Positions 3,311 through 16,865 of a DNA stretch of 64,000 nt are shown piece after piece. This DNA comes from an uncultured Bdellovibrionales bacterium. Lineage in GTDB: Bacteria > Patescibacteriota > Minisyncoccia > Moranbacterales > UBA1568. Position 1 is the stretch's first letter; the number at the start of each line of letters is the position of its first letter. Position numbers and translations under genes: made by a program. The notes beneath the pieces were generated by a model. That model ran no database searches and was not told the origin of the DNA. It was given only the letters and a program-made list of their open reading frames with translations. Where the stretch lies: contig CAZQLN010000002.1 of the NCBI GenBank assembly GCA_964594215.1, positions 105,855-169,854 of the forward strand, in the 5' to 3' direction.

Positions 3311-4876
3311 ATGTATCGTCCGCTCGTTTTGATAGTGCTTGATGGCTGGGGTCTCAGCAACAGTACTCAGGGCAACCCTATTCGAGAGGCTACCCTTCCG
3401 ACTTTTGATACCCTCAACCGCTATTATCCCATGACCACCCTCCAGGCCTCGGGTATTTCTGTTGGTCTTCCCTGGAACACAGCCGGCAACAGCGAGGTGG
3501 GTCACATGACTATGGGGGCTGGTAGAGTTATCTACCAAAACTTACCTCGTATCTCACTAGCTATCCAGGATGAGAGCTTTTTCAAGAATCCTGTTCTTCT
3601 TGACGCTCTCGAAGCTGCCGAGAAGAAAGGTGCCAAAGTTCACCTCATGGGACTTGTGAGCTCAGGCAGCGTTCATGCTCACCGAGATCATATAAGCGCC
3701 CTCTTCCGTCTTGGCAAACAGGTAGGCGTTAGTCAGATGTTTCTCCATGCTTTTACTGATGGGCGCGATTCTGCTCCCACAGCTGGTATCCAGACTATTA
3801 AGGACGTTCTCCGTGAAATGCACACTGGTGGCATGGGCAAGCTGGCTAGTATTTCTGGACGCAACTATGCCATGGACCGTAATAACAACTGGGATCGGAT
3901 CGCCAGAACGTATAAGCTTCTTACCGAAGGTATTGGTGAACAAACCGCTGACCCCCTGCTCTATCTTGAACAAAGCTATGTCCGAGGAGTAACCGATGAG
4001 TATATCGAACCCACTCTTATCACCGAAAATAGTCGTCCCATCGCCCTGATTGAAGATGGTGATACTGTAATCTTCTTCAACTTCCGCGAAGATCGTGCTC
4101 GTGAACTCGCTAAGGCCTTTGTCTCAGATCCTTTTGATGGTTTTGCTCGCCAGAAAAAAGATCTCCACTTCGTCACCTTTACTGAATACGAACAACACCT
4201 TGGAGCCTTTGTTGCTTTTGAACCAGAAAATATCAATGGTAGTCTTGGCGAAGTTCTCTCTCAGTATGAAAAAACTCAACTTCGCTTAGCCGAAACCGAA
4301 AAATACGCTCACGTCACCTACTTTTTCAATGGAGGTAAGGAAAAGCCTTTTCCAAACGAAGACCGTATTCTGATACCTTCACCCACTGTTGCTCATTTTG
4401 ATGAGATCCCCGAGATGAGCTCCCCTCAAATTACCGAGGCCCTAGTCAAGGCGGTTCTCAGTAACAAGTATGATTTTATTCTGGTCAATTATGCCAATCC
4501 AGATATGGTTGGTCACACTGGCAATGAGCCCGCCGCTATCGAAGCAGTAGAGGCTACCGATAAAAGCCTCTCTATCGTTATTCCAGCTATTCTCAAATCT
4601 GGTGGCGCTATGATTATTACCGCCGATCATGGCAATGTAGAAGAAATCACTCGTATCGCTACTGGCGAAATAGACACTGAACACTCAAGTAATCCTATTC
4701 CCCTATGGTATCTCACTCCTGATAATCAGCGTGAAAAAACAGCTGATCAAATGATGCGTGAACAAAATCAGGTTAATGGACTCCTCTCTGATGTAGCTCC
4801 AACCATTCTTGAAATTCTTGATATTCCCAAACCGACTGTTATGAACGGTACTAGCCTTCTCGACTTATTAAAATAG
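3311..4876 (+). CDS. gpmI: 2,3-bisphosphoglycerate-independent phosphoglycerate mutase
   Basis: 521 aa, LIVLDGWGLS N-terminus and ADHGN metal-binding motif typical of iPGM. Confidence 0.9.
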   Translation: MYRPLVLIVLDGWGLSNSTQGNPIREATLPTFDTLNRYYPMTTLQASGISVGLPWNTAGNSEVGHMTMGAGRVIYQNLPRISLAIQDESFFKNPVLLDALEAAEKKGAKVHLMGLVSSGSVHAHRDHISALFRLGKQVGVSQMFLHAFTDGRDSAPTAGIQTIKDVLREMHTGGMGKLASISGRNYAMDRNNNWDRIARTYKLLTEGIGEQTADPLLYLEQSYVRGVTDEYIEPTLITENSRPIALIEDGDTVIFFNFREDRARELAKAFVSDPFDGFARQKKDLHFVTFTEYEQHLGAFVAFEPENINGSLGEVLSQYEKTQLRLAETEKYAHVTYFFNGGKEKPFPNEDRILIPSPTVAHFDEIPEMSSPQITEALVKAVLSNKYDFILVNYANPDMVGHTGNEPAAIEAVEATDKSLSIVIPAILKSGGAMIITADHGNVEEITRIATGEIDTEHSSNPIPLWYLTPDNQREKTADQMMREQNQVNGLLSDVAPTILEILDIPKPTVMNGTSLLDLLK

Positions 4877-9779: not shown

Positions 9780-10832
9780 TTACTCGAAGGTCATATTGAG
9801 TCGCTGAGGCTGAATGTGCATGGCACGAACTGCAGCCGTCAGATTGAACGAAAGCTCGACACAGCCCGAGTCATTGACTCGTACCGATGCCTCGGATGGC
9901 CCCTTGAACTTCGCTGTTTCCACCGGAGTCCCGTTGATGACGACCACTCCCGAAAGAGTGTAGTCACCTTCGTTGAGGCGTATCTGCTGGTATGGGATAG
10001 TGACATCCCTTTCTCCGGGACGAATCCCGCAGACCAACTGGGCATCAAAAGAGGTGACATCCACCACTTTGGTGGTCGTGCGACCGCCGATGGTGTCGTA
10101 CAGGACATTTTCAGCCTGGCCGATAACACGATGATCTTCACGCTCCTTTTGGAGAGCGCTCAGTTCTTCGTATTCAGCGAAGCTCAACTTCTCACCTTGC
10201 TCGGCACGTGCTAGCAGTTCTTCTGCTCTGGCGTTTTTGACTTCATCAGCACGAACCATGAGCGCCCGTTCAATCCGGGACGTAGTCAGGTCTTGCGGAT
10301 GAAAATACATCCACGTGTAGTAGGTAACCCCCACACCTGAAACAGCAAGGACAAGCCAGATGGCTTTGAAGTAGAGCTTTGCTGGAGCCTTAGCCAAGTA
10401 GCTGATGATCGCAATCAGGCCAAGAATGACCAGAACTGCGATGACGCCGTCAGTGTGCTCAATGCGTGTGATTCCGATGACGACCAAAGCCGTCCCCAGA
10501 AACAACATCGCGTGAGCCACCTTTTTGGTGTAGGCCTCAAGCGTACTGCCCACTGTGTACCTTCTGGAAATCGTGGCGAAGCCAAGAACGCCCCAAAGCA
10601 CTGGTGGACTGTACGCCGCAAGACCGCCGAAAATGCCGACAAACAGCGCAATGAAGAAACACCAACCCGGATGACCGAGCTTATTGACAGTCACCCCCAA
10701 ATAGAGGATGGCCAAGAAGCCAAACACGCTTCCGAGGAAGAGAGTAGTATAGAATGGCTTCAGCCAATCATAGAACCCCTCAGCTTCTACCAAAGCTCGC
10801 GTTCTCAATCTTTGACGAATACCTGCATACAT
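9780..10832 (-). CDS. Hypothetical membrane protein (about 5 N-terminal TM helices plus soluble C-terminal domain), GC-rich
   Basis: 350-aa ORF with AGGAG Shine-Dalgarno; starts 18 nt after the upstream gene's stop; GC hand-counted about 50-57%. Confidence 0.6.
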   Translation of the reverse strand: MYAGIRQRLRTRALVEAEGFYDWLKPFYTTLFLGSVFGFLAILYLGVTVNKLGHPGWCFFIALFVGIFGGLAAYSPPVLWGVLGFATISRRYTVGSTLEAYTKKVAHAMLFLGTALVVIGITRIEHTDGVIAVLVILGLIAIISYLAKAPAKLYFKAIWLVLAVSGVGVTYYTWMYFHPQDLTTSRIERALMVRADEVKNARAEELLARAEQGEKLSFAEYEELSALQKEREDHRVIGQAENVLYDTIGGRTTTKVVDVTSFDAQLVCGIRPGERDVTIPYQQIRLNEGDYTLSGVVVINGTPVETAKFKGPSEASVRVNDSGCVELSFNLTAAVRAMHIQPQRLNMTFE

Positions 10833-10850
10833 ATCTAATCTCCTGTATCT

Positions 10851-11750
10851 TTAGCCGAAAGTGTTGTATCCGAGTAGGGCGAGAAAGCTCAAAATGAGCG
10901 TCAGTGGTATCCAGAAAGCATAGCTTTTACTGGTTGCCACTTTATGAGCGATGTGCTCATTTCTCATCTCAAGCGTTCTGTCCAGAAGCTCTTCGATCAA
11001 TCGTACCTTTGTCGTTTCTGTTACACGCCTAGTAAGAATATCTCCGAGCGCGTTTGAATCAACAAAGAAACTCGTAACCATGAGCAGCCCCCGCACTCCC
11101 TGCTTGCGCAGGAACTGAGGAGTCTGGGTAATCAACTTTGAAACCCAGTCAAAGAAGGGCTTGTCATCAAGTGCGGTCGCCAGTAGATACTCAGCCGCCA
11201 AAGCTACTGCTTCATCAGAATCAGCAACGATGTCCTTGCCTGAGAAATCTTTTCCGGGCTCACTCACCATATCAGCGATATTCTGCAGATAGATGATCCG
11301 CGGATCACTTGGCGTATTCTTGGCATCCACGGCGCCATGGTGAGCTGCAGGCTTACGCCCCCAGCCGCTACCAGCGGTACCATGTCCAGTCGTCTTGCGG
11401 TGAGGCAGAATGACTGGACCATGTGGATCATGCTTGAGACCTTCCACGACAATCGTCGCTACTATCATCTCCCAACGTTTCCGCTGAGCACCTGATAACA
11501 AAAGTCTCACGCGAGTAATACGTTTGCGATCTTCGAGACTGAGACGGTTGAGAGCATTGTTGAATTCTGCCTCTTCCTTGTACCCTATCCCGAAAAGATT
11601 GGGCACATCCTCTTTCATGACTTTCTGGAAGGCTTCTTGTCCTCCATTGGTCCACGCCCCTTGCAGGGTCTTGATGATGTTATTAACTACGCCTTCGGCC
11701 AAACCGTCAGCTGCACCTCTCATAAAGAGGCCTGAGAGAATACTTGGCAT
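10851..11750 (-). CDS. Hypothetical protein with C-terminal TM tail-anchor, GC-rich
   Basis: 299-aa ORF with AAGGAA Shine-Dalgarno; hydrophobic C-terminus (AFWIPLTLILSFLALLGY); no recognisable family. Confidence 0.55.
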   Translation of the reverse strand: MPSILSGLFMRGAADGLAEGVVNNIIKTLQGAWTNGGQEAFQKVMKEDVPNLFGIGYKEEAEFNNALNRLSLEDRKRITRVRLLLSGAQRKRWEMIVATIVVEGLKHDPHGPVILPHRKTTGHGTAGSGWGRKPAAHHGAVDAKNTPSDPRIIYLQNIADMVSEPGKDFSGKDIVADSDEAVALAAEYLLATALDDKPFFDWVSKLITQTPQFLRKQGVRGLLMVTSFFVDSNALGDILTRRVTETTKVRLIEELLDRTLEMRNEHIAHKVATSKSYAFWIPLTLILSFLALLGYNTFG

Positions 11751-11785
11751 TATTCGTTCCTTTCGATTGTTTCAGTTATTAAAGA

Positions 11786-11844
11786 GCCCGTCGCGACAAA
11801 GCGCGGTCACGGTCTGTCCACGACGGGCAGAAAATCACCGTAAC
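11786..11844 (-). promoter_or_regulatory. Conserved 5' leader RNA element, copy A (candidate riboswitch or attenuator)
   Basis: Transcript GUUACGGUGAUUUUCUGCCCGUCGUGGACAGACCGU... starts 6 nt after the -10 box. The first 36 nt are identical to copy B except one compensatory C/U. A downstream strand GCGACGGGC can pair with GCCCGUCGU. Confidence 0.45.
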
Positions 11845-11849
11845 CTACT

Positions 11850-11878
11850 ATTATACTCCTATTATTTGATTTTGTCAA
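11850..11878 (-). promoter_or_regulatory. Consensus sigma70 promoter TTGACA-17-TATAAT
   Basis: Minus strand reads TTGACAaaatcaaataataggagTATAAT. Confidence 0.6.
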
Positions 11879-11932
11879 TAGTAAAAACATCTGAAGATCC
11901 CTATTTAAAGCAAAAAATCCCTAAATAATTAT

Positions 11933-11970
11933 AAAAAATAGGGGGTGGAACTCAAAAAAGTCCCACCCCC
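11933..11970 (-). terminator. Intrinsic terminator after the NUDIX-like gene
   Basis: ggggtgggac...gttccacccc hairpin followed by TATTTTTT on the minus strand. Confidence 0.5.
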
Positions 11971-11992
11971 CTACCAGGTTCACACGCTCAGT

Positions 11993-12724
11993 CTAGTCGT
12001 GATGTTTATCACGCAGATGAGCCAACAAACGTGCGCAGCCCGCTACTAAAATACCATCAGGCGACTGCGCAATAAGCTCATACCAGGGCATGAAGGTGAT
12101 TTCCGCTTCTTTTTGATGAGATGAAACACCAGCCTTGAAATGTGCTCGGAGATACCGATGTTTGTCCAGCTCAATAGATTCCAGGGGAATCTCCAGTCCG
12201 CTATAACGCACCCCTTCTCCCTTACTGGAATCAGCAAGGAAAAAAAGACGGTCAACACAAACTGGCAAACCCTGAATCACCTTTGGCTTGAAGCTCGCGC
12301 CAAGACCAGCCTCCTCAGAGAGTTCTGCAGCCAAAGCTTCGTCCCTTGAGAGTTTGAGCTCATTCATCCCGCCAATAGCGCAGAAATGTCTGCCGCCCAT
12401 ATTTGGACGTTCTTCGCGGATTGCTCCGATCCAGAGAACTTCGCCCGGATCCCAGAAATACAAGAGACACACTTCACCGCCGCCACTTGGCTGAGCAATG
12501 ATAGGTCCTTGAAAATCTTCCGAACCCTTATTGCGATAACCGAGTGCGAAGACCGTATCGCGGGTCGGATTGTAGAGAATAGCCTGAGATATTTCTGTCC
12601 AATTACCCGACGTACCGACTTTCAGCCGCCATTCACGTTGAGTGTTGGAAATATCATCGGGCTTGCCTAAGAAACCCAAAACCTTTTTCAAGGCTGGTCC
12701 TATTTTGACATCCAAAGACATCAT
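11993..12724 (-). CDS. NUDIX-fold hydrolase-like protein (Nudix box partly degenerate), GC-rich
   Basis: GGMNELKLSRDEALAAELSEEAGL aligns to the Nudix box GX5EX7REUXEEXGU with R to A and E to L substitutions. Start taken at MMSLD with AAGGAG Shine-Dalgarno (ORF track start 12811 would run through the leader element). Confidence 0.5.
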   Translation of the reverse strand: MMSLDVKIGPALKKVLGFLGKPDDISNTQREWRLKVGTSGNWTEISQAILYNPTRDTVFALGYRNKGSEDFQGPIIAQPSGGGEVCLLYFWDPGEVLWIGAIREERPNMGGRHFCAIGGMNELKLSRDEALAAELSEEAGLGASFKPKVIQGLPVCVDRLFFLADSSKGEGVRYSGLEIPLESIELDKHRYLRAHFKAGVSSHQKEAEITFMPWYELIAQSPDGILVAGCARLLAHLRDKHHD

Positions 12725-12753
12725 CTTACTCCTTCTCTCTAAATTGGAAAGGT

Positions 12754-12817
12754 GCCCGTCGTAGAAAAACCTACGAGGATTACGGTCTATCCACGACGGG
12801 CAGAAAATCACCGTAAC
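12754..12817 (-). promoter_or_regulatory. Conserved 5' leader RNA element, copy B
   Basis: GUUACGGUGAUUUUCUGCCCGUCGUGGAUAGACCGU..., followed by a different internal hairpin and then ACGACGGGC; starts 6 nt after the -10 box. Confidence 0.45.
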
Positions 12818-12822
12818 GCTCT

Positions 12823-12851
12823 ATTTTAGCATAAAAAAGCAAAAAAGTCAA
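12823..12851 (-). promoter_or_regulatory. Near-consensus sigma70 promoter TTGACT-17-TAAAAT
   Basis: Minus strand reads TTGACTtttttgcttttttatgcTAAAAT. Confidence 0.55.
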
Positions 12852-12904
12852 TGGCTGGCACTGACTTCTCCTCTTTCAGCAATTTGCTTTATCTAAAGCC
12901 TTAT

Positions 12905-13981
12905 CTATTGGAAAAAGTCTGCTATCTGTCTCACAATGACTAAGGCTGAAAATGCTACAATAATACCAATAATAGCGTACTTCACAATATCCTTACCGGT
13001 ATTAGCCCGCTTCTCATCACCAGCAGAAAGGAAATACATGATGGCTCCAATCAGAAGCATGATGATAGCTAAGACGCCGATAATAGCTAGAAGAAAATTA
13101 AGCACATTGGTAGCTATCTCAGTTAAGGTCAAAGCGCTACTCGCCTGACTTGGTAGATTATTCCAACCCAATACACCTGCCAGTTCCTTGAGGAAGGATG
13201 GCGCTACCATGACAATAGCCAATCCGATAAGGGCGGCTGTGATCGCCGCTTTAGCAGCTCCGACACGCTTATCATTCCCCGCCGAGGTAATGTAAAGAAG
13301 AGCGCCAATGACCAGAAATACTAAGGCTAGTAAAACAACGATATTGCGCATGAAACCGAGAACGCTGTCGAGAAATGTTTCCACCGTGGTGTACTGTGTC
13401 GGTGAATTAAAAGTAATAAGAATAGGTGCTCCAGCTGTAGGAGAAGTTACTCCACCACCGCCAGCAGGCCCACCAGGAGAAGATGGTATACAACACTGTC
13501 CGGAGCTACAGGTACCGTTCTGAGTGCTGCCACTTGGACAAGTTGGATTACAGGTACCTCCTGCATTTGCGCAAGCCGCATCACTAGTTGGAGGTGTCCC
13601 ACTCGGAGCTGGTGGAGTAGTGGCTGGAGACGTGGATACACAACAAACGCTATTATTCCAACTAAAAGCTATTCTTTCATTAGTACCACAACTTGTCGCT
13701 CGTTGCGCCTTCAATTGAGCTACTCTACCATTAGTCCCATTAGGATTAGTACAAACAACCGTATAAGAGAGGCAACAAGACCCATTACCAGCACCAAAAC
13801 AGCCCGAACCCACCTCTTGTTCATCACTATTGCAATTATTAAAAATGCCTGTTCTACAGGTTCCCTGCGCCGCCTTACACTGCTGTGCAGTCATAGGGAT
13901 AATAGCCGAGTAACTAGAGCTCGGAAAAGCAATAACTCCCGTAATAACAAACGCCAAAGTGATGAAAAAATGTTTCTTCAT
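12905..13981 (-). CDS. Secreted Cys-rich protein with two tandem C-terminal TrbC/VirB2-like pilin modules
   Basis: Signal peptide MKKHFFITLAFVITGVIA, Cys/Pro/Thr-rich ectodomain, then two repeats of TM - YITSAGNDKR/FLSAGDEKR - TM matching the adjacent small pilin-like proteins. ORF track 12905..14020; start moved to an internal Met to avoid overlap. Confidence 0.6.
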   Translation of the reverse strand: MKKHFFITLAFVITGVIAFPSSSYSAIIPMTAQQCKAAQGTCRTGIFNNCNSDEQEVGSGCFGAGNGSCCLSYTVVCTNPNGTNGRVAQLKAQRATSCGTNERIAFSWNNSVCCVSTSPATTPPAPSGTPPTSDAACANAGGTCNPTCPSGSTQNGTCSSGQCCIPSSPGGPAGGGGVTSPTAGAPILITFNSPTQYTTVETFLDSVLGFMRNIVVLLALVFLVIGALLYITSAGNDKRVGAAKAAITAALIGLAIVMVAPSFLKELAGVLGWNNLPSQASSALTLTEIATNVLNFLLAIIGVLAIIMLLIGAIMYFLSAGDEKRANTGKDIVKYAIIGIIVAFSALVIVRQIADFFQ

Positions 13982-13982
13982 A

Positions 13983-14489
13983 TTAAAAAGTGTTGCTTTG
14001 GGCAGTAAGAAGTGTTTCAATAGCCTGCAAGATAACTAAACCACTAAGAGCGACAATAACACCAATAATAGCATTGAGCATATTTCTCTTACCCGTCTCT
14101 GCGAGCTTAGCATCCCCTACGGAAGCCAAATACTGCATACCTGAAATCACAAAAGCGATAATAGCGAGCATCCCAACAATAGCTAACAACCAAAACATAA
14201 ACGTCATAAGGATGTTCCCTAATGGCGCGCTAGAAAGGCCAGTATTAGTCGGGAAGCAAACTCCCGCTTCTATGGTTCCATTACATGGAGTTCCTGAAGT
14301 ACTCGTACTTGATCCTCCTCCATTTTGTGTGGAAGTGGCTGCTTGGGCTTGGGCTTCTTGAACAGCCTGGGCTTGTATTTGCGGAGTAATAATATTATTC
14401 AGATTACCCGTTGGAGTCTGTGCCTTTAAAGGCAGTGCCGTGACTATAAAAAAGATTCCTACGAAAAGAAACTGTAAATATTTTTTCAT
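13983..14489 (-). CDS. TrbC/VirB2-like pilin-family membrane protein with short Cys-containing N-terminal region
   Basis: 168 aa; signal peptide, then WLLAIVGMLAIIAFVISGMQYLASVGDAKLAETGKRNMLNAIIGVIVALSGLVILQAIE (two TM helices separated by a short basic loop). Confidence 0.55.
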   Translation of the reverse strand: MKKYLQFLFVGIFFIVTALPLKAQTPTGNLNNIITPQIQAQAVQEAQAQAATSTQNGGGSSTSTSGTPCNGTIEAGVCFPTNTGLSSAPLGNILMTFMFWLLAIVGMLAIIAFVISGMQYLASVGDAKLAETGKRNMLNAIIGVIVALSGLVILQAIETLLTAQSNTF

Positions 14490-14574
14490 ATTACTTTTAG
14501 TTTTTGCTAACCCAATTATACCACAAAAAAACAGCCTCTTCTTGATAAGAGACTGTTTTCATTGAAGACTAAAA

Positions 14575-14946
14575 TTAGAAGTTCGGTTGCCCTGAACCAT
14601 CTAAGAATGTATCAACTGCCTGGATAATTACGAAACCAATAAGGGCTACAATAATACCCGTAATAGCGGCTGTCATAGCGCTCTTGGCGGTACCAACCTT
14701 CTTTTCATCTCCGGCTGCGGTGAGATACAGGATACCAGCGATGACAAAGGCAATGATTCCGATGAAACCAAGAACAGCCAGAAGCCAGTTCATAGCTGTT
14801 TGGATAATACCGATGATAGAACCCTGTGGAAGTTGTGAATTCTGAGCATTGGTTTGTCCGGCTTTCCACTGTGCGTTAGCGAGAGTCGGCATCAAAAGCA
14901 ACACAAAAGCGAGCGCACTGTAGAAATAGTTTTTAACTAATGTCAT
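14575..14946 (-). CDS. TrbC/VirB2-like pilin-family membrane protein
   Basis: 123 aa; signal peptide ...TLANA, then NWLLAVLGFIGIIAFVIAGILYLTAAGDEKKVGTAKSAMTAAITGIIVALIGFVIIQAVD. Confidence 0.55.
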   Translation of the reverse strand: MTLVKNYFYSALAFVLLLMPTLANAQWKAGQTNAQNSQLPQGSIIGIIQTAMNWLLAVLGFIGIIAFVIAGILYLTAAGDEKKVGTAKSAMTAAITGIIVALIGFVIIQAVDTFLDGSGQPNF

Positions 14947-15018
14947 ATTTCTCTCACCTCCTTTCTTTTATTGAGCGTATAGCTCGTTTTTATTTTTTCT
15001 CTTCTGTTTTTTTTCTTT

Positions 15019-15300
15019 TCAGGGTGCAAAGAATGAACTCAACTGACTGACAATAACAAGCGCTCCGAGTGCTACCACTATACCAATAATGGAAAACTGG
15101 AAAGCCTTTTTAGCAAGATCTACTTGCTTCGTATTGCCTAGAGCTGTAAGGTACAAAATCCCCGCAACCACTAGTGCAATTATAGCAAGCACCCCCACGA
15201 TTGACAACAGAAACTGTAAAATATTTTCTAAGATGGTCGTGATGGGAGTGGCATTGGTAATACTTCCCGCATAAACTGTACTAATAAATAGAGCCTTCAT
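15019..15300 (-). CDS. TrbC/VirB2-like pilin-family membrane protein
   Basis: 93 aa; short signal peptide, two TM helices around YLTALGNTKQ, same module as neighbours. Confidence 0.55.
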   Translation of the reverse strand: MKALFISTVYAGSITNATPITTILENILQFLLSIVGVLAIIALVVAGILYLTALGNTKQVDLAKKAFQFSIIGIVVALGALVIVSQLSSFFAP

Positions 15301-15308
15301 TTAATTTA

Positions 15309-15869
15309 TTATTCTTCATTAGAAACTCTGTCATCTACTACATTTGAAAGATCTATCCTGTCAGGACAAAATGAGAGTCCCAGATTCTGACCAGCCAACC
15401 TTCGATTAACTGAACTATTCACTGTTACATCGACGTTGAGCTTACAAGCATCTTCATCAGTTATATTTAATTTATTTATCAGAGCTTGACTTGCTTTTAC
15501 TCTCGTTTCGAGCAAGGGATACTCGTATAGATTAATCAGAAAACGTTGCTCTGTTTTTGAATAGTCTATTGTGTATTCAGGAACAAATGACGGTGCGTCT
15601 GAGTATGGATATTTATCTATTTGGTAAATATTTTCACTTATACTCGGCGCTTGCAATAAAGCCGCATCTATTTTTTCCTGAACTGCTGGTGTTATGGAAA
15701 GCTCTGTTTTTTCCATGGGTAAACCAGTGAAAGTCGCACCCCCTTCAGTAACTCCCGCCTGATCATTTTTTGATACGTCTGCTTCCTTCTCAGTGTTACT
15801 TAAAAAAATTACTGCCAACACCCCTAATGTTAACAATGCGACCGCTGAAATAATAATGACTTTTTTCAT
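15309..15869 (-). CDS. Hypothetical secreted or signal-anchored protein
   Basis: 186 aa, N-terminal hydrophobic segment, no recognisable domain. Confidence 0.45.
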   Translation of the reverse strand: MKKVIIISAVALLTLGVLAVIFLSNTEKEADVSKNDQAGVTEGGATFTGLPMEKTELSITPAVQEKIDAALLQAPSISENIYQIDKYPYSDAPSFVPEYTIDYSKTEQRFLINLYEYPLLETRVKASQALINKLNITDEDACKLNVDVTVNSSVNRRLAGQNLGLSFCPDRIDLSNVVDDRVSNEE

Positions 15870-15875
15870 AGGATT

Positions 15876-16865
15876 TTACTTACAAAAATTGGATGTTGTC
15901 CCTCCTAAATTACAGGTATTAGCACTACAAGCCCAATCTTGCATATCACCCCCCTTGTTACTACTCGATATTTGACAAGCAATTTTTGTATTTACTGCAG
16001 GATCGAAAAGTTTCTGCATGCAAGAGTTAAAAGTGACCTGATTGTTGATTTGACAATTCCAACGAAGACAGATGTTGCGGCTATTCCTTTGAGCACAATT
16101 GCCTTTCGATCCAAGATTTGCACAGCTTGAACTAATTTTTGATCCATGGTCAAAGACATTTATCTGAAAAAGTCCCCCTGAGAAGGCAGACCCATTGGCG
16201 CATCGATCTGTACCACTGACAGCGCTGACATTTCCTCCACCACTTTCCTTATTGCAGAGTTGAGAGAAACGGTCGTTACCGAACGCTGTACAACTGGCCC
16301 CAAGACTAGTAGGGCTACAGGCATTGGTCCCAGTCAAAGCCTTACAAGTCCCCCCACTAGGAGGGGTGCCGCCAGGAGTACCAGCAGTACCAAAATTGGT
16401 TGAACTAGCTGAGCCGGCAGTCGAGTTTGGATCACAGGTAAACGAAAAAGTTCCATTCTGAAAATAACCGCTGAAATAGCCAGAAGATCCGCTAATACGA
16501 ATAATAGTATTCACAATAAGCCACGCACAGAGGATGACGGTTATTCCGATAAGAGCCGCTTTGATACCTCCCTTAGCTGTACTGAGTATTTTCTCATTCC
16601 CCACAGAGACAATATAGAGGATACCCATGGCAAAAATGACTGCGATGCCGATCACTGTCATTACCTTAATAATCCAATCAATAATAATCTTAGCCATATA
16701 GAGCACGTGACACGCGGTACATGGAGCAGTTTCATTGAATTCTGTAACGGGATCATCGGCATTTAAGGCACAGACAACTAGTCCAGCTGCACGTGATACA
16801 GTGGGAACAGTAAAACCTGTAAAAATGGTACTAACAAGAAGTACTGAGAAAAGGATTTGTCTCAT
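15876..16865 (-). CDS. Protein with N-terminal TrbC/VirB2-like pilin module fused to a C-terminal Cys-rich extracellular domain
   Basis: 329 aa; signal peptide, module IIDWIIKVMTVIGIAVIFAMGILYIVSVGNEKILSTAKGGIKAALIGITVIL, then a Cys-rich region with more than 20 Cys. Confidence 0.55.
   Translation of the reverse strand: MRQILFSVLLVSTIFTGFTVPTVSRAAGLVVCALNADDPVTEFNETAPCTACHVLYMAKIIIDWIIKVMTVIGIAVIFAMGILYIVSVGNEKILSTAKGGIKAALIGITVILCAWLIVNTIIRISGSSGYFSGYFQNGTFSFTCDPNSTAGSASSTNFGTAGTPGGTPPSGGTCKALTGTNACSPTSLGASCTAFGNDRFSQLCNKESGGGNVSAVSGTDRCANGSAFSGGLFQINVFDHGSKISSSCANLGSKGNCAQRNSRNICLRWNCQINNQVTFNSCMQKLFDPAVNTKIACQISSSNKGGDMQDWACSANTCNLGGTTSNFCK

Follow-up and report, generated by a model that had tools for sequence, protein, structure and literature searches.

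Genes and leaders at the locus

The locus lies on the minus strand of the window, that is, the whole 64,000-nucleotide stretch of DNA that was analysed, and contains two transcription units that begin with the same leader sequence, one (copy B) ahead of a gene for a NUDIX-like protein and the other (copy A) ahead of an operon encoding two membrane proteins. The promoters, leaders and genes are as follows:

12823..12851, minus strand: copy B promoter, with -35 box TTGACT (12851-12846), 17-nt spacer and TG-extended -10 box TAAAAT (12828-12823); 10/12 consensus matches
12725..12817, minus strand: copy B leader RNA, from the predicted +1 G (12817) up to the base preceding the ATG of the NUDIX-like gene; covariance model (CM) score 75.1 bits
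11993..12724, minus strand: NUDIX-like gene downstream of copy B, 243 aa, ADP-ribose-pyrophosphatase-like fold, degenerate NUDIX box GGMNELKLSRDEALAAELSEEAGL
11940..11971, minus strand: intrinsic terminator past the NUDIX-like gene, a 14-bp stem followed by AUUUUUUAUA
11850..11878, minus strand: copy A promoter, with -35 box TTGACA (11878-11873), 17-nt spacer and -10 box TATAAT (11855-11850); 12/12 consensus matches
11751..11844, minus strand: copy A leader RNA, from the predicted +1 G (11844) up to the base preceding the start codon of the 299-aa gene; CM score 75.4 bits
11758..11763, minus strand: Shine-Dalgarno sequence AAAGGA of copy A, read from the sequence, 7 nt upstream of the ATG at 11750
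9780..11750, minus strand: two-gene operon behind copy A, encoding a 299-aa protein (11750-10851) and a 350-aa protein (10832-9780)

Regarding the repeated sequence, the 64-kb window contains exactly two copies of a 28-nt core, GTTACGGTGATTTTCTGCCCGTCGTGGA, both on the minus strand (11844-11817 and 12817-12790), and 100 shuffles gave none. Nucleotides 1-36 of copies A and B are the same save for position 29, which is C in copy A and U in copy B (35/36 shared); outside nt 1-36 and the 3' strand of helix P2 (see below), comparison within the window found the two copies unrelated, the variable region P3 included. The distance from the -10 box to the first G is 5 nt in copy A, in copy B and at all homologous loci, and this invariant spacing suggests that the G of GUUAC (11844 in copy A, 12817 in copy B) is probably the transcription start. 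The initial annotation had described a repeated 5' leader behind two consensus promoters, heading two separate transcription units, and both points are borne out: each copy lies 5 nt downstream of a promoter-like site, and the intrinsic terminator divides the two units, whose starts are predicted. It had further read the C/U difference at nt 29 as preserving a pair with G, which does not hold in general, as this U is unpaired in the predicted fold of copy B; the position falls in the junction UGGAYAG, and in a 95%-identical strain copy B carries C at this site.

The downstream genes agree with their earlier description as a NUDIX-like gene and a two-gene membrane operon. The NUDIX-like protein matches NUDIX hydrolases in profile searches and its AF2 model resembles ADP-ribose pyrophosphatases. 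The 299-aa protein has a C-terminal membrane anchor (tail-anchored) and the 350-aa protein an N-terminal multi-helix membrane part, the structure model of the latter being too poor to use (pLDDT 48.6). The membrane pair is encoded at the end of a type-IV-secretion-pilin cluster.

Distribution and conservation in related genomes

The element was detected in about eight related organisms, as 10 distinct sequences, with two of the MAGs titled Candidatus Moraniibacteriota. The loci bearing it are L001 (two copies), L009, L010, L013, L014, L015, L016/L017 and L018, and near-identical strains bearing it are L007, L008 and L021-L024, so that the leader is kept at homologous loci of related genomes, in support of the initial annotation. 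Strains of this near-identical kind are present in SRR16481183, SRR14126297 and ERZ27258550. Each genome has only one or two copies. In all relatives a promoter of the form TTGAC-17-TAnAAT is found at constant distance from the element. Between organisms, nt 1-40 of the leader are 80-88% identical, whereas identity is 53-71% in the promoter region, 58-69% in the pair of downstream genes and 69-79% in nusA; judged by these identities, the leader is under purifying selection.

Regarding the genes that follow the element, the membrane operon is syntenic in L001, L014, L015, L016 and L018, while in L013 (one MAG) the leader precedes a gene for a secreted 191-aa protein. The same leader thus heads non-homologous genes (NUDIX-like gene, membrane pair and secreted protein), a regulon-like use, and the associated genes have no known pathway in common. 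The element is absent from more distant NUDIX-like homologues, of 30-38% identity (L002-L006, L011, L025 and L026), and so does not accompany the NUDIX family in general. Few loci were available because homologue searches with the two downstream proteins gave only 1 and 4 cluster matches.

Searches of the window and all loci with nhmmer (--max) and with the covariance model (filters off) detected no copies beyond the known instances. Viral contigs gave 0 matches to either the exact 21-mer or the degenerate pattern, and plasmids gave no blastn match to the element. A single phage blastn match was rejected as chance, spanning the AT-rich promoter part only. The sole match of a metagenome scan (L012), in a collection that evidently lies outside the JGI, ENA and Logan contigs bearing the element, was likewise rejected as chance, having neither the promoter nor P2 and P3.

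Structure of the leader RNA

The strands of the RNA, numbered from the predicted first nucleotide, are as follows, beginning with copy A:

11837..11844, minus strand: P1 5' strand, GUUACGGU, nt 1-8, pairing with 11813-11806
11829..11836, minus strand: J1/2, GAUUUUCU, nt 9-16, a U-rich linker of 8-17 nt among organisms
11821..11828, minus strand: P2 5' strand, GCCCGUCG, nt 17-24, pairing with 11793-11786
11814..11820, minus strand: J2/1, UGGACAG, nt 25-31, a nearly invariant junction
11806..11813, minus strand: P1 3' strand, ACCGUGAC, nt 32-39; duplex -10.0 kcal/mol
11794..11805, minus strand: variable P3 region, C followed by GCGCUUUGUCG, nt 40-51, a weak hairpin (-1.2 kcal/mol)
11786..11793, minus strand: P2 3' strand, CGACGGGC, nt 52-59, pairing with GCCCGUCG

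The corresponding strands of copy B are:

12810..12817, minus strand: P1 5' strand, GUUACGGU, pairing with 12786-12779; duplex -8.6 kcal/mol
12794..12801, minus strand: P2 5' strand, GCCCGUCG, the same strand as in copy A
12787..12793, minus strand: J2/1, UGGAUAG, junction
12779..12786, minus strand: P1 3' strand, ACCGUAAU, partner of GUUACGGU
12762..12778, minus strand: variable P3 hairpin region, CCUCGUAGGUUUUUCUA, nt 40-56; z = -3.3 against shuffles
12754..12761, minus strand: P2 3' strand, CGACGGGC, partner of GCCCGUCG

P1 crosses P2, so that the fold is an H-type pseudoknot in which the hairpin P3 is embedded. The P1 pairing (nt 1-8 with nt 32-39) is 100% intact in the 10 distinct sequences, with four variable pairs (GC/GU, UA/UG, AU/GC/GU and UG/UA), and for P2 the paired share is 95-97%: in L001 two of its pairs have switched from G-C to A-U on both sides, and L010 has three mismatches. 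P3 is a hairpin in every sequence, although the sequences themselves are unrelated; its z-scores against shuffles range from -1.8 to -5.3, except in copy A (-0.6), where the energy is also -1.2 kcal/mol compared with -2.8 to -9.5 in the other sequences. The J2/1 junction reads UGGACAG in nine of the 11 leaders, the others being copy B (UGGAUAG) and L009 (AGAACAG). P3 and P2 adjoin directly (0 nt apart), and P3 could stack on P2; the UGGACAG junction and the U-rich J1/2 would be positioned to line the helix grooves.

In the alignment fitted to the model, 94.4% of cells were paired and eight pairs had compensatory changes, values reached by none of 500 shuffles, and slid controls on the same alignment gave 27-42% paired. 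With an unfitted MAFFT alignment and P1 and P2 alone, the observed values were reached by 33-36 of 500 shuffles, a marginal result; RNAalifold independently predicts P2. The independent compensatory events are few and the alignment is shallow (about eight organisms and 10 distinct sequences of a single clade, effective sequence number 2.43). Regarding the strand, covariance model scores were 71-95 bits for the sense strand and 8-16 bits for the reverse strand, and P1 and P2 together contain 17 G·U cells as against one A·C cell; as the G·U pairs indicate, the transcribed strand is the functional one.

Most of the fold had been anticipated in the initial annotation. The pairing of nt 1-8 with nt 32-39 holds in both copies, which differ at positions 37 and 39 as U-G/G-C versus U-A/G-U; the middle hairpin is locus-specific, its sequence being unrelated between copies A and B; and the downstream strand CGACGGGC does pair with GCCCGUCG within the first helix, the two helices being pseudoknotted. 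The covariation suggested there is present as well, with pairing-preserving and compensatory changes in both proposed helices among the homologous loci, at the effective sequence number given above. The element shows some of the features by which riboswitches are recognized, namely a conserved structured sense-strand domain in the predicted 5' UTR, paired elements with covariation (on this shallow alignment) and conserved junction nucleotides.

Comparison with known RNA families

A scan of the whole window with Rfam 15 (4227 models) at the gathering score detected two tRNAs only and nothing on the element. For the region 11600-13000, four weak chance matches were obtained at E<=10, none of them on the element's own strand; HPnc0260 (plus strand, 25.7 bits compared with a gathering score of 59) overlaps the first 6 nt of the element from the opposite strand. 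Five homologous loci had no match on the element at E<=5. The statement that the sequence fits no recognized riboswitch is therefore sustained for both elements by these scans, and the literature searched also contained no match. The element is a candidate for a new orphan riboswitch-type RNA, with a known range limited so far to a few related genomes and contigs of Patescibacteria.

Other types of element were also considered. A small ORF or leader peptide was rejected, as a conserved reading frame is ruled out by the 1-nt J1/2 indels that separate the otherwise near-identical L014 and L018 (and likewise L015), and the GUG at nt 7 is GUA in L001. An integron attC site or CRISPR repeat was rejected because the element occurs only twice, behind a promoter each time, and has the topology of a pseudoknot and not of a hairpin.

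The preQ1-II riboswitch (with a hairpin embedded in loop 3) and the SAM-II and SAM-V riboswitches have a similar strand order, in which the 5' strand of helix 1 is followed by the 5' strand of helix 2, the 3' strand of helix 1, an optional hairpin and the 3' strand of helix 2. They also share with the element, which is 60-85 nt long, a short aptamer, a site in the 5' UTR and a pyrimidine-rich groove loop. There is, however, no sequence or covariance model similarity and no Rfam match at E<=10. Furthermore, the Shine-Dalgarno sequence of the element is found 12-30 nt beyond the last helix, outside the pseudoknot, unlike in these riboswitches, and the element also differs in its long, 7-nt junction from helix 2 to helix 1 (UGGACAG) and in an aptamer that begins at the first transcribed nucleotide. 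Membership in these families was thus rejected, on the missing Rfam match and the Shine-Dalgarno sequence outside the helix, the topology alone being common.

Regarding function, ykkC subtype 2c (nucleoside-diphosphate) riboswitches control genes of NUDIX-family hydrolases, a precedent that shows riboswitch control of NUDIX genes to be possible and suggests nucleotide-derived ligands (PMC7266159). The architecture of that subtype is entirely unlike that of the element, for which there was no ykkC match in Rfam and which also precedes genes for membrane and secreted proteins.

Mode of action

The leader hairpins were not called in a terminator scan that did call the real terminator at 11971-11940, and the 8 nt past P2 contain 2-5 scattered U and no terminator-like U-run. 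The suggestion of an attenuator is not upheld, since the hairpin has no U-run like those of the genuine terminators nearby and escaped the terminator scan, and control by termination is unlikely.

Masking of the Shine-Dalgarno sequence was not found consistently, the modelled accessibility of the RBS region differing between states in only three of the 11 leaders. Masking by the CUCUUU tract past P2 or by J1/2 likewise gained no support: the hand-drawn pairings of 4-5 bp shift among organisms and the partition-function accessibilities are inconsistent. An alternative closing helix, between nt 1-12 and the UUrACAAyU tract, which is conserved among leaders, was set aside, since among the minimum-energy folds only those of copy A, L013 and L015 contain it.

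Regarding competition between folds, the minimum-energy hairpin pairs 3-5 of the eight nucleotides of the P1 3' strand in all nine sequences (9/9). Freeing this strand costs 1.4-13.2 kcal/mol, compared with a gain of 8-10 kcal/mol from the P1 duplex. Masking of the P1 3' strand was clearly above shuffled-insert controls in only three of eight sequences, which do not include L001 and L009. Of the alternative folds that the initial annotation had likened to a riboswitch expression platform, the pseudoknot is supported and the competing hairpin is kept as a putative state; neither a terminator-like U-run nor consistent Shine-Dalgarno masking was found. Of its new riboswitch, the conserved structured leader without an Rfam match stands, with ligand binding as a candidate role only.

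Interpretation and alternative explanations

The element is likely a functional structured leader RNA. Our preferred reading, to which we give a probability of roughly 0.45 as a whole mechanism, is that of a cis-acting, pseudoknotted 5' leader that is stabilised by a ligand. In this mechanism the P1 5' strand (first 8 nt) pairs with nt 32-39, with the P2 5' strand between the two P1 strands, and GCCCGUCG of P2 pairs with CGACGGGC beyond the variable P3, forming the H-type pseudoknot with its embedded hairpin. In the putative competing state a longer P2 hairpin would capture 3-5 nucleotides of the P1 3' strand, with nt 1-16 left single-stranded, and the ligand would stabilise the pseudoknot over this hairpin. 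The stabilised pseudoknot may make the 5' end and the pyrimidine-rich linker inaccessible, which would alter translation initiation and/or the 5'-end-dependent decay of the mRNA of the downstream genes. The best guess for the ligand, because of the ADP-ribose-pyrophosphatase-like gene downstream, would be a small nucleotide-derived metabolite, with a protein as the main alternative. That the element is a metabolite-binding riboswitch we hold as a tentative candidate assignment. Somewhat doubtful is the more specific possibility of a new riboswitch class unique to this host-dependent ultrasmall lineage, which would sense a nucleotide-derived metabolite (possibly ADP-ribose, an NDP-sugar, an NDP or a signalling nucleotide) and co-regulate the hydrolase and the membrane pair via 5'-end accessibility; the 5'-terminal pseudoknot would then govern the accessibility of the mRNA 5' end and would not act as a terminator or Shine-Dalgarno-masking platform.

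Alternatively, a lineage-specific RNA-binding protein may recognise the pseudoknot or UGGACAG and repress or activate a small regulon. The sequence of the helices, not their pairing alone, is highly conserved, the element is confined to a narrow clade with 1-2 copies per genome and the downstream genes are functionally unrelated, all of which would suit a protein-binding leader, as would the GGA of the conserved junction together with the GGA-containing Shine-Dalgarno sequence 55-65 nt downstream; two GGA sites are reminiscent of two-site binding by CsrA-type proteins. Pseudoknot leaders near the mRNA 5' end also control translation in Escherichia coli rpsO, which is bound by S15, and in phage T4 gene 32. 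These are, however, autoregulated by the encoded protein, and autoregulation is unlikely here, given the lack of homology among the downstream genes. No candidate binding protein was identified, and a variable peripheral hairpin, conserved junctions and a pseudoknot are equally typical of metabolite aptamers; on balance we consider binding of a protein rather unlikely.

Less probable still is a constitutive 5' stabiliser or translation enhancer, in which a 5'-terminal helix would shield the mRNA from 5'-end-dependent RNases without sensing. This would fit with P1, which in all instances begins at the predicted first nucleotide, with the distant NUDIX-like homologues L002 and L011, which have a hairpin of different sequence just past a consensus promoter, and with no expression platform having been found by the terminator scan or the modelling of RBS accessibility. 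A protective hairpin, however, needs no invariant 7-nt junction, no pseudoknot and no conservation of 80-88%, above that of nusA, and the same sequence is retained ahead of unrelated genes.

It is very improbable that the conserved feature is a DNA operator, i.e., the inverted repeat GTTACRG...CYGTAAC (+1 to +39), at which a transcription factor would bind and obstruct RNA polymerase. The repeat does overlap the transcription start, its half-sites change together (GTTACGG/CCGT versus GTTACAG/CTGT) and the spacer of L009 is 9 nt longer, about one helical turn. Against this, every one-sided change in P1 is a G·U pair on the transcribed strand and would make asymmetric half-sites on DNA, the preponderance of G·U over A·C cells (17 to one) in P1 and P2 points to RNA, and an operator leaves the conserved P2 3' strand and the sequence-independent P3 hairpin 10-25 nt further on unexplained; a half-site spacing of 23-32 bp is also atypical.

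Equally remote are a neutral remnant left by duplication of promoter and leader (a 'mobile promoter' cassette), for which direct repeats of the promoter-leader region flanking the NUDIX-like gene (identical over about 125 nt in L001, with repeats also in L009 and L010) could speak but which fails to explain the compensatory changes and a cross-species conservation above that of coding genes, and a self-cleaving ribozyme of HDV-like topology. HDV-like ribozymes share with the element the nested and crossing strand order P1-P2-P1'-hairpin-P2' with P1 from nt 1, and copy B has G1·U, while the element has G1-C in most sequences, no P3/L3 segment (only 7-8 nt separate the P2 5' strand from the P1 3' strand), no P1.1, no J4/2 linker for the catalytic C, because P3 abuts P2 directly, no Rfam ribozyme match, and a promoter directly upstream, which leaves nothing to cleave off.

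Significance for Patescibacteria

Gene regulation in the Patescibacteria (Candidate Phyla Radiation) is almost unexplored, and the literature searched describes no riboswitch or structured leader for this group. Patescibacteria obtain nucleotides from the hosts on which they depend. No role is known for the type-IV-secretion-like pilin clusters of these bacteria (PMC11665869). As a candidate sensor, the leader would join an ADP-ribose-pyrophosphatase-like enzyme, two uncharacterised membrane proteins encoded next to such a pilin cluster and a secreted protein. Should the leader turn out only to bind a protein or to act as a stabiliser, it would remain an RNA family new to Rfam and worth entering there, of modest general interest. 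The RNA is small (about 60-85 nt), so that its study in vitro would be possible without culturing the organism, and the identity of a ligand would hint at the function of the orphan genes downstream.

Two leaders with a common 5' end

The 28-mer GTTACGGTGATTTTCTGCCCGTCGTGGA occurs at two sites only in the 64 kb, both on the minus strand (11844-11817 and 12817-12790), and in none of 100 dinucleotide-preserving shuffles. Each site opens a leader placed as follows:

11844, minus strand: start of copy A; promoter TTGACA-17-TATAAT (12/12 consensus matches), 5 nt from -10 box to leader start
12817, minus strand: start of copy B; promoter TTGACT-17-TAAAAT with TG extension (10/12 matches), 5 nt from -10 box to leader start
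11971-11940: strong terminator between the copy A unit and the copy B unit

The initial annotation had described two minus-strand leaders of the same sequence behind consensus promoters, in separate transcription units; these are real, with 35 of the first 36 nt shared, starts 5 nt past the -10 boxes and the terminator lying between them. The sole difference in nt 1-36 is at position 29, C in copy A and U in copy B, after which the copies diverge fully up to a common CGACGGGC. The reading that this C/U difference preserves pairing with a G does not hold, as the predicted fold of copy B leaves U29 without a partner and the position is C in copy B of a 95%-identical strain; it is better described as a polymorphism within the junction. 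Both leaders fold far more stably than shuffled sequences (z = -3.4 to -5.2).

Structure and covariation

The first helix, P1, pairs nt 1-8 with nt 32-39 in 80/80 cells of 10 distinct sequences, and the four variable pairs (G-C/G·U, U-A/U·G, A-U/G-C/G·U and U·G/U-A) bear out the pairing-preserving differences first noted between the two copies. The second helix, P2, joins GCCCGUCG to CGACGGGC and is 95-97% paired; two of its pairs show double changes from G-C to A-U in the related locus L001, and G·U intermediates occur in others. RNAalifold predicted this helix independently, in line with the second pairing proposed initially. As the P2 5' strand sits between both P1 strands, the helices cross and by strand order would make an H-type pseudoknot, one of the two arrangements that had been suspected, with P1 and P2 presumably formed simultaneously. 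The linker from P1 to P2 (J1/2) is U-rich and 8-17 nt long, and the junction UGGACAG, from the P2 5' strand to the P1 3' strand, is almost invariant. The locus-specific internal hairpin, P3, lies between the P1 and P2 3' strands, embedded in the third loop of the pseudoknot, and is present in every sequence despite unrelated sequences, with UUCG or GUAA loops in some and energies of -1.2 to -9.5 kcal/mol (copy A weakest); it abuts P2 without a linker, and the two could stack on each other.

In a model-fitted alignment, fitted to P2 and P3 and not to P1, 94.4% of cells were paired with compensatory changes at 8 pairs, reached by 0/500 shuffles, and slid controls gave 27-42% paired. For P1 and P2 alone in a plain MAFFT alignment the observed values were reached by 33-36 of 500 shuffles, which is marginal support; the alignment is shallow and comes from a single clade. 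The P1 and P2 cells hold 17 G·U against 1 A·C, and covariance model scores were 71-95 bits in sense and 8-16 bits in antisense, so the sense strand is the functional one. A conserved ORF through the leader was ruled out by one-nucleotide indels in the linker. One related sequence (L010, 68-146) has three P2 mismatches (G·A, A·C and A·A) with P1 and P3 intact, which may reflect decay of the copy, a variant form or an error in the assembly of its 971-nt contig.

Genomic context and downstream genes

In the window, a run of T4SS_pilin (PF18895) genes is followed by the two leader-driven units and, beyond them, by nusA, a gene for inorganic pyrophosphatase and an ORF of 430 aa that corresponds to trigger factor in the near-identical strain L021. 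The window looks like part of a Patescibacteria genome, and two related loci are from MAGs titled Candidatus Moraniibacteriota, Parcubacteria group. The pilin cluster comprises five genes (12905-16865, minus strand) directly upstream of the leader-controlled units, the first with Cys-rich defensin-like repeats and the last with a lysozyme-like SLT_3 domain, and its synteny is kept in L014, L015 and L016.

Regarding copy B, the 243-aa protein encoded behind it had no Pfam hit when searched alone. In the PDB, a profile of its 8-member family picked up NUDIX hydrolase 1 along with ADP-ribose pyrophosphatases (E ~0.01), and one distant member reached Pfam NUDIX. The best matches of its AlphaFold model (pLDDT 77.8) were NUDT5, the ADP-ribose pyrophosphatases of E. 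coli, Klebsiella and M. tuberculosis, and a GDP-mannose hydrolase (E 1e-7 to 1e-6, TM-scores ~0.4-0.55). The NUDIX box is degenerate (GGMNELKLSRDEALAAELSEEAGL). On the profile, the distant Pfam member and the structure matches, the original label "NUDIX-like" is correct, and more specifically the protein is ADPRase-like. The operon behind copy A, annotated as two membrane-protein genes, does encode a 299-aa protein with a hydrophobic C-terminal anchor and a 350-aa protein with a bundle of hydrophobic helices as its N-terminal half; family searches gave no informative match for either, and the structure prediction for the 350-aa protein was too poor to use (pLDDT 48.6).

Distribution in relatives

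Among 5.8 billion sequences, homologues were rare both for the NUDIX-like protein (9 clusters) and for the 350-aa protein (4 clusters). Loci with the element came from the homologues' contigs and from one degenerate-pattern scan of species-representative genomes:

L001: two copies, arranged as in the window
L009, L010: in front of the NUDIX-like gene
L014, L015, L016/L017, L018: one copy each, in front of the membrane pair; the NUDIX-like gene is absent
L013: in front of the gene for a secreted 191-aa protein, with other genes around it
L007, L008, L021-L024: near-identical strains of the window organism

The element is conserved in related genomes, in homologous loci (L001, L009, L010, L014-L018) and in L013. 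All instances start with GTTAC exactly 5 nt past TAnAAT, itself 17 nt from TTGAC, and this invariant spacing suggests that transcription starts at the leader's first nucleotide. No additional copies were found in the window or any fetched locus, and the element is absent from more distant NUDIX-like homologues (30-38% identity). Two loci of such homologues in a KhpA neighbourhood (L002, 3421-3506; L011, 1851-1901) have a different short structured leader, with a GTCAA start directly after a consensus promoter and a 5'-proximal hairpin; this leader could represent a second type or an unrelated element that stabilises the 5' end.

Direct repeats comprising upstream region, promoter and leader lie on both sides of the NUDIX-like gene:

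L001: 1379-1502 and 2322-2446
L009: 9-70 and 1005-1071
L010: 1-35 and 940-971

Those of L001 are identical from ~-15 to +110, a stretch that takes in 7 nt at the start of either coding sequence. Together with the single leader of the gene-less L014, L015 and L018, the repeats suggest that the gene may be gained or lost via recombination between leader copies, or that gene conversion is ongoing. In L016 (4001-4800; the same in L017), a 228-aa ORF without family match separates the last pilin gene from the promoter of the leader, and a duplicate of the pilin gene's 3' end (~4725-4778) indicates a second insertion event at the same locus. The title of L014 (CAZLQC010000001.1) reads "uncultured Bdellovibrionales", yet the contig shows synteny with the window (TypA/BipA, pilin cluster, leader, membrane pair), and over its C-terminal half the contig's 378-aa protein is almost identical to the window's 350-aa protein; the label is probably a binning or classification error.

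Conservation and alternative explanations

Table. Nucleotide identity of the window to L001, L013, L014 and L015
Leader nt 1-40: 80-88%
Promoter region: 53-71%
Two downstream genes: 58-69%
nusA: 69-79%

Conserved helix sequence and narrow distribution would also fit a protein-binding leader, which is rather unlikely: no candidate protein was found, and autoregulation is improbable because the downstream genes are unrelated. A constitutive 5' stabiliser, improbable as a full account, would explain the 5'-terminal helix but leave the invariant junction, the pseudoknot and the conservation above nusA unexplained. A DNA operator is contradicted by the G·U asymmetry, P2 and P3, and is very improbable. 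Hardly any weight falls, even jointly, on a neutral duplicated promoter cassette, which fails on cross-species conservation, or an HDV-like ribozyme, whose P3/L3 and J4/2 elements are missing.

Downstream of the P2 3' strand and ahead of the Shine-Dalgarno, nearly all leaders also have a conserved linear tract, UUrACAAyU (e.g., UUGACAAU, UUAACAAC; window 11766-11785 and 12735-12753, and equivalent positions in other loci); weak pairing with nt 1-4 (GUUA) is possible in some sequences, inconsistently.

Known families and possible function

The initial annotation matched no known riboswitch, and in agreement Rfam 15 gave no family for any instance at gathering score, E<=10 or E<=5. Searches of phages, plasmids and viral contigs returned nothing relevant to the element, and full-text literature searches on riboswitches and RNA motifs in CPR, Patescibacteria, Parcubacteria and Moranbacteria turned up no account of such an element. 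The topology is akin to small pseudoknot riboswitches, nearest to preQ1-II, which also embeds a hairpin in loop 3, then to SAM-II and SAM-V; membership in these was rejected, as no model matched, the leader's Shine-Dalgarno lies outside the pseudoknot, and its junction is long and conserved.

Regarding switching, the nested fold of lowest energy is invariably an extended P2 hairpin, in which 3-5 nt of the P1 3' strand are paired and nt 1-16 stay single-stranded. Releasing the P1 3' strand takes 1.4-13.2 kcal/mol, an amount similar to the 8-10 kcal/mol that P1 formation yields, so the two states are roughly balanced and switch-like; masking of the strand was clearly above shuffled-insert controls in just 3/8 sequences. 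No leader hairpin is followed by a terminator-like U-run, which speaks against the attenuator initially considered, and modelled accessibility of Shine-Dalgarno and start codon was state-dependent in only 3 of 11 leaders. In the best-supported mechanism, a ligand or factor would stabilise the pseudoknot, which would sequester the 5' end of the mRNA together with the pyrimidine-rich linker and so influence the initiation of translation, decay that depends on the 5' end, or both. That the ligand is nucleotide-derived is a reasonable, if speculative, guess, given the ADPRase-like enzyme encoded downstream and the precedent of riboswitches that control NUDIX genes, namely ykkC subtype 2c (PMC7266159), with which the leader has the NUDIX association in common but not the architecture.

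Several unrelated mRNAs carry, at their predicted 5' end, a conserved, strand-specific, pseudoknot-capable RNA. The probability that this RNA structure is functional is about 80%, and that it is a metabolite riboswitch is tentative, at somewhat less than even odds. It is a real, conserved and previously undescribed structured leader RNA and a credible orphan riboswitch candidate.
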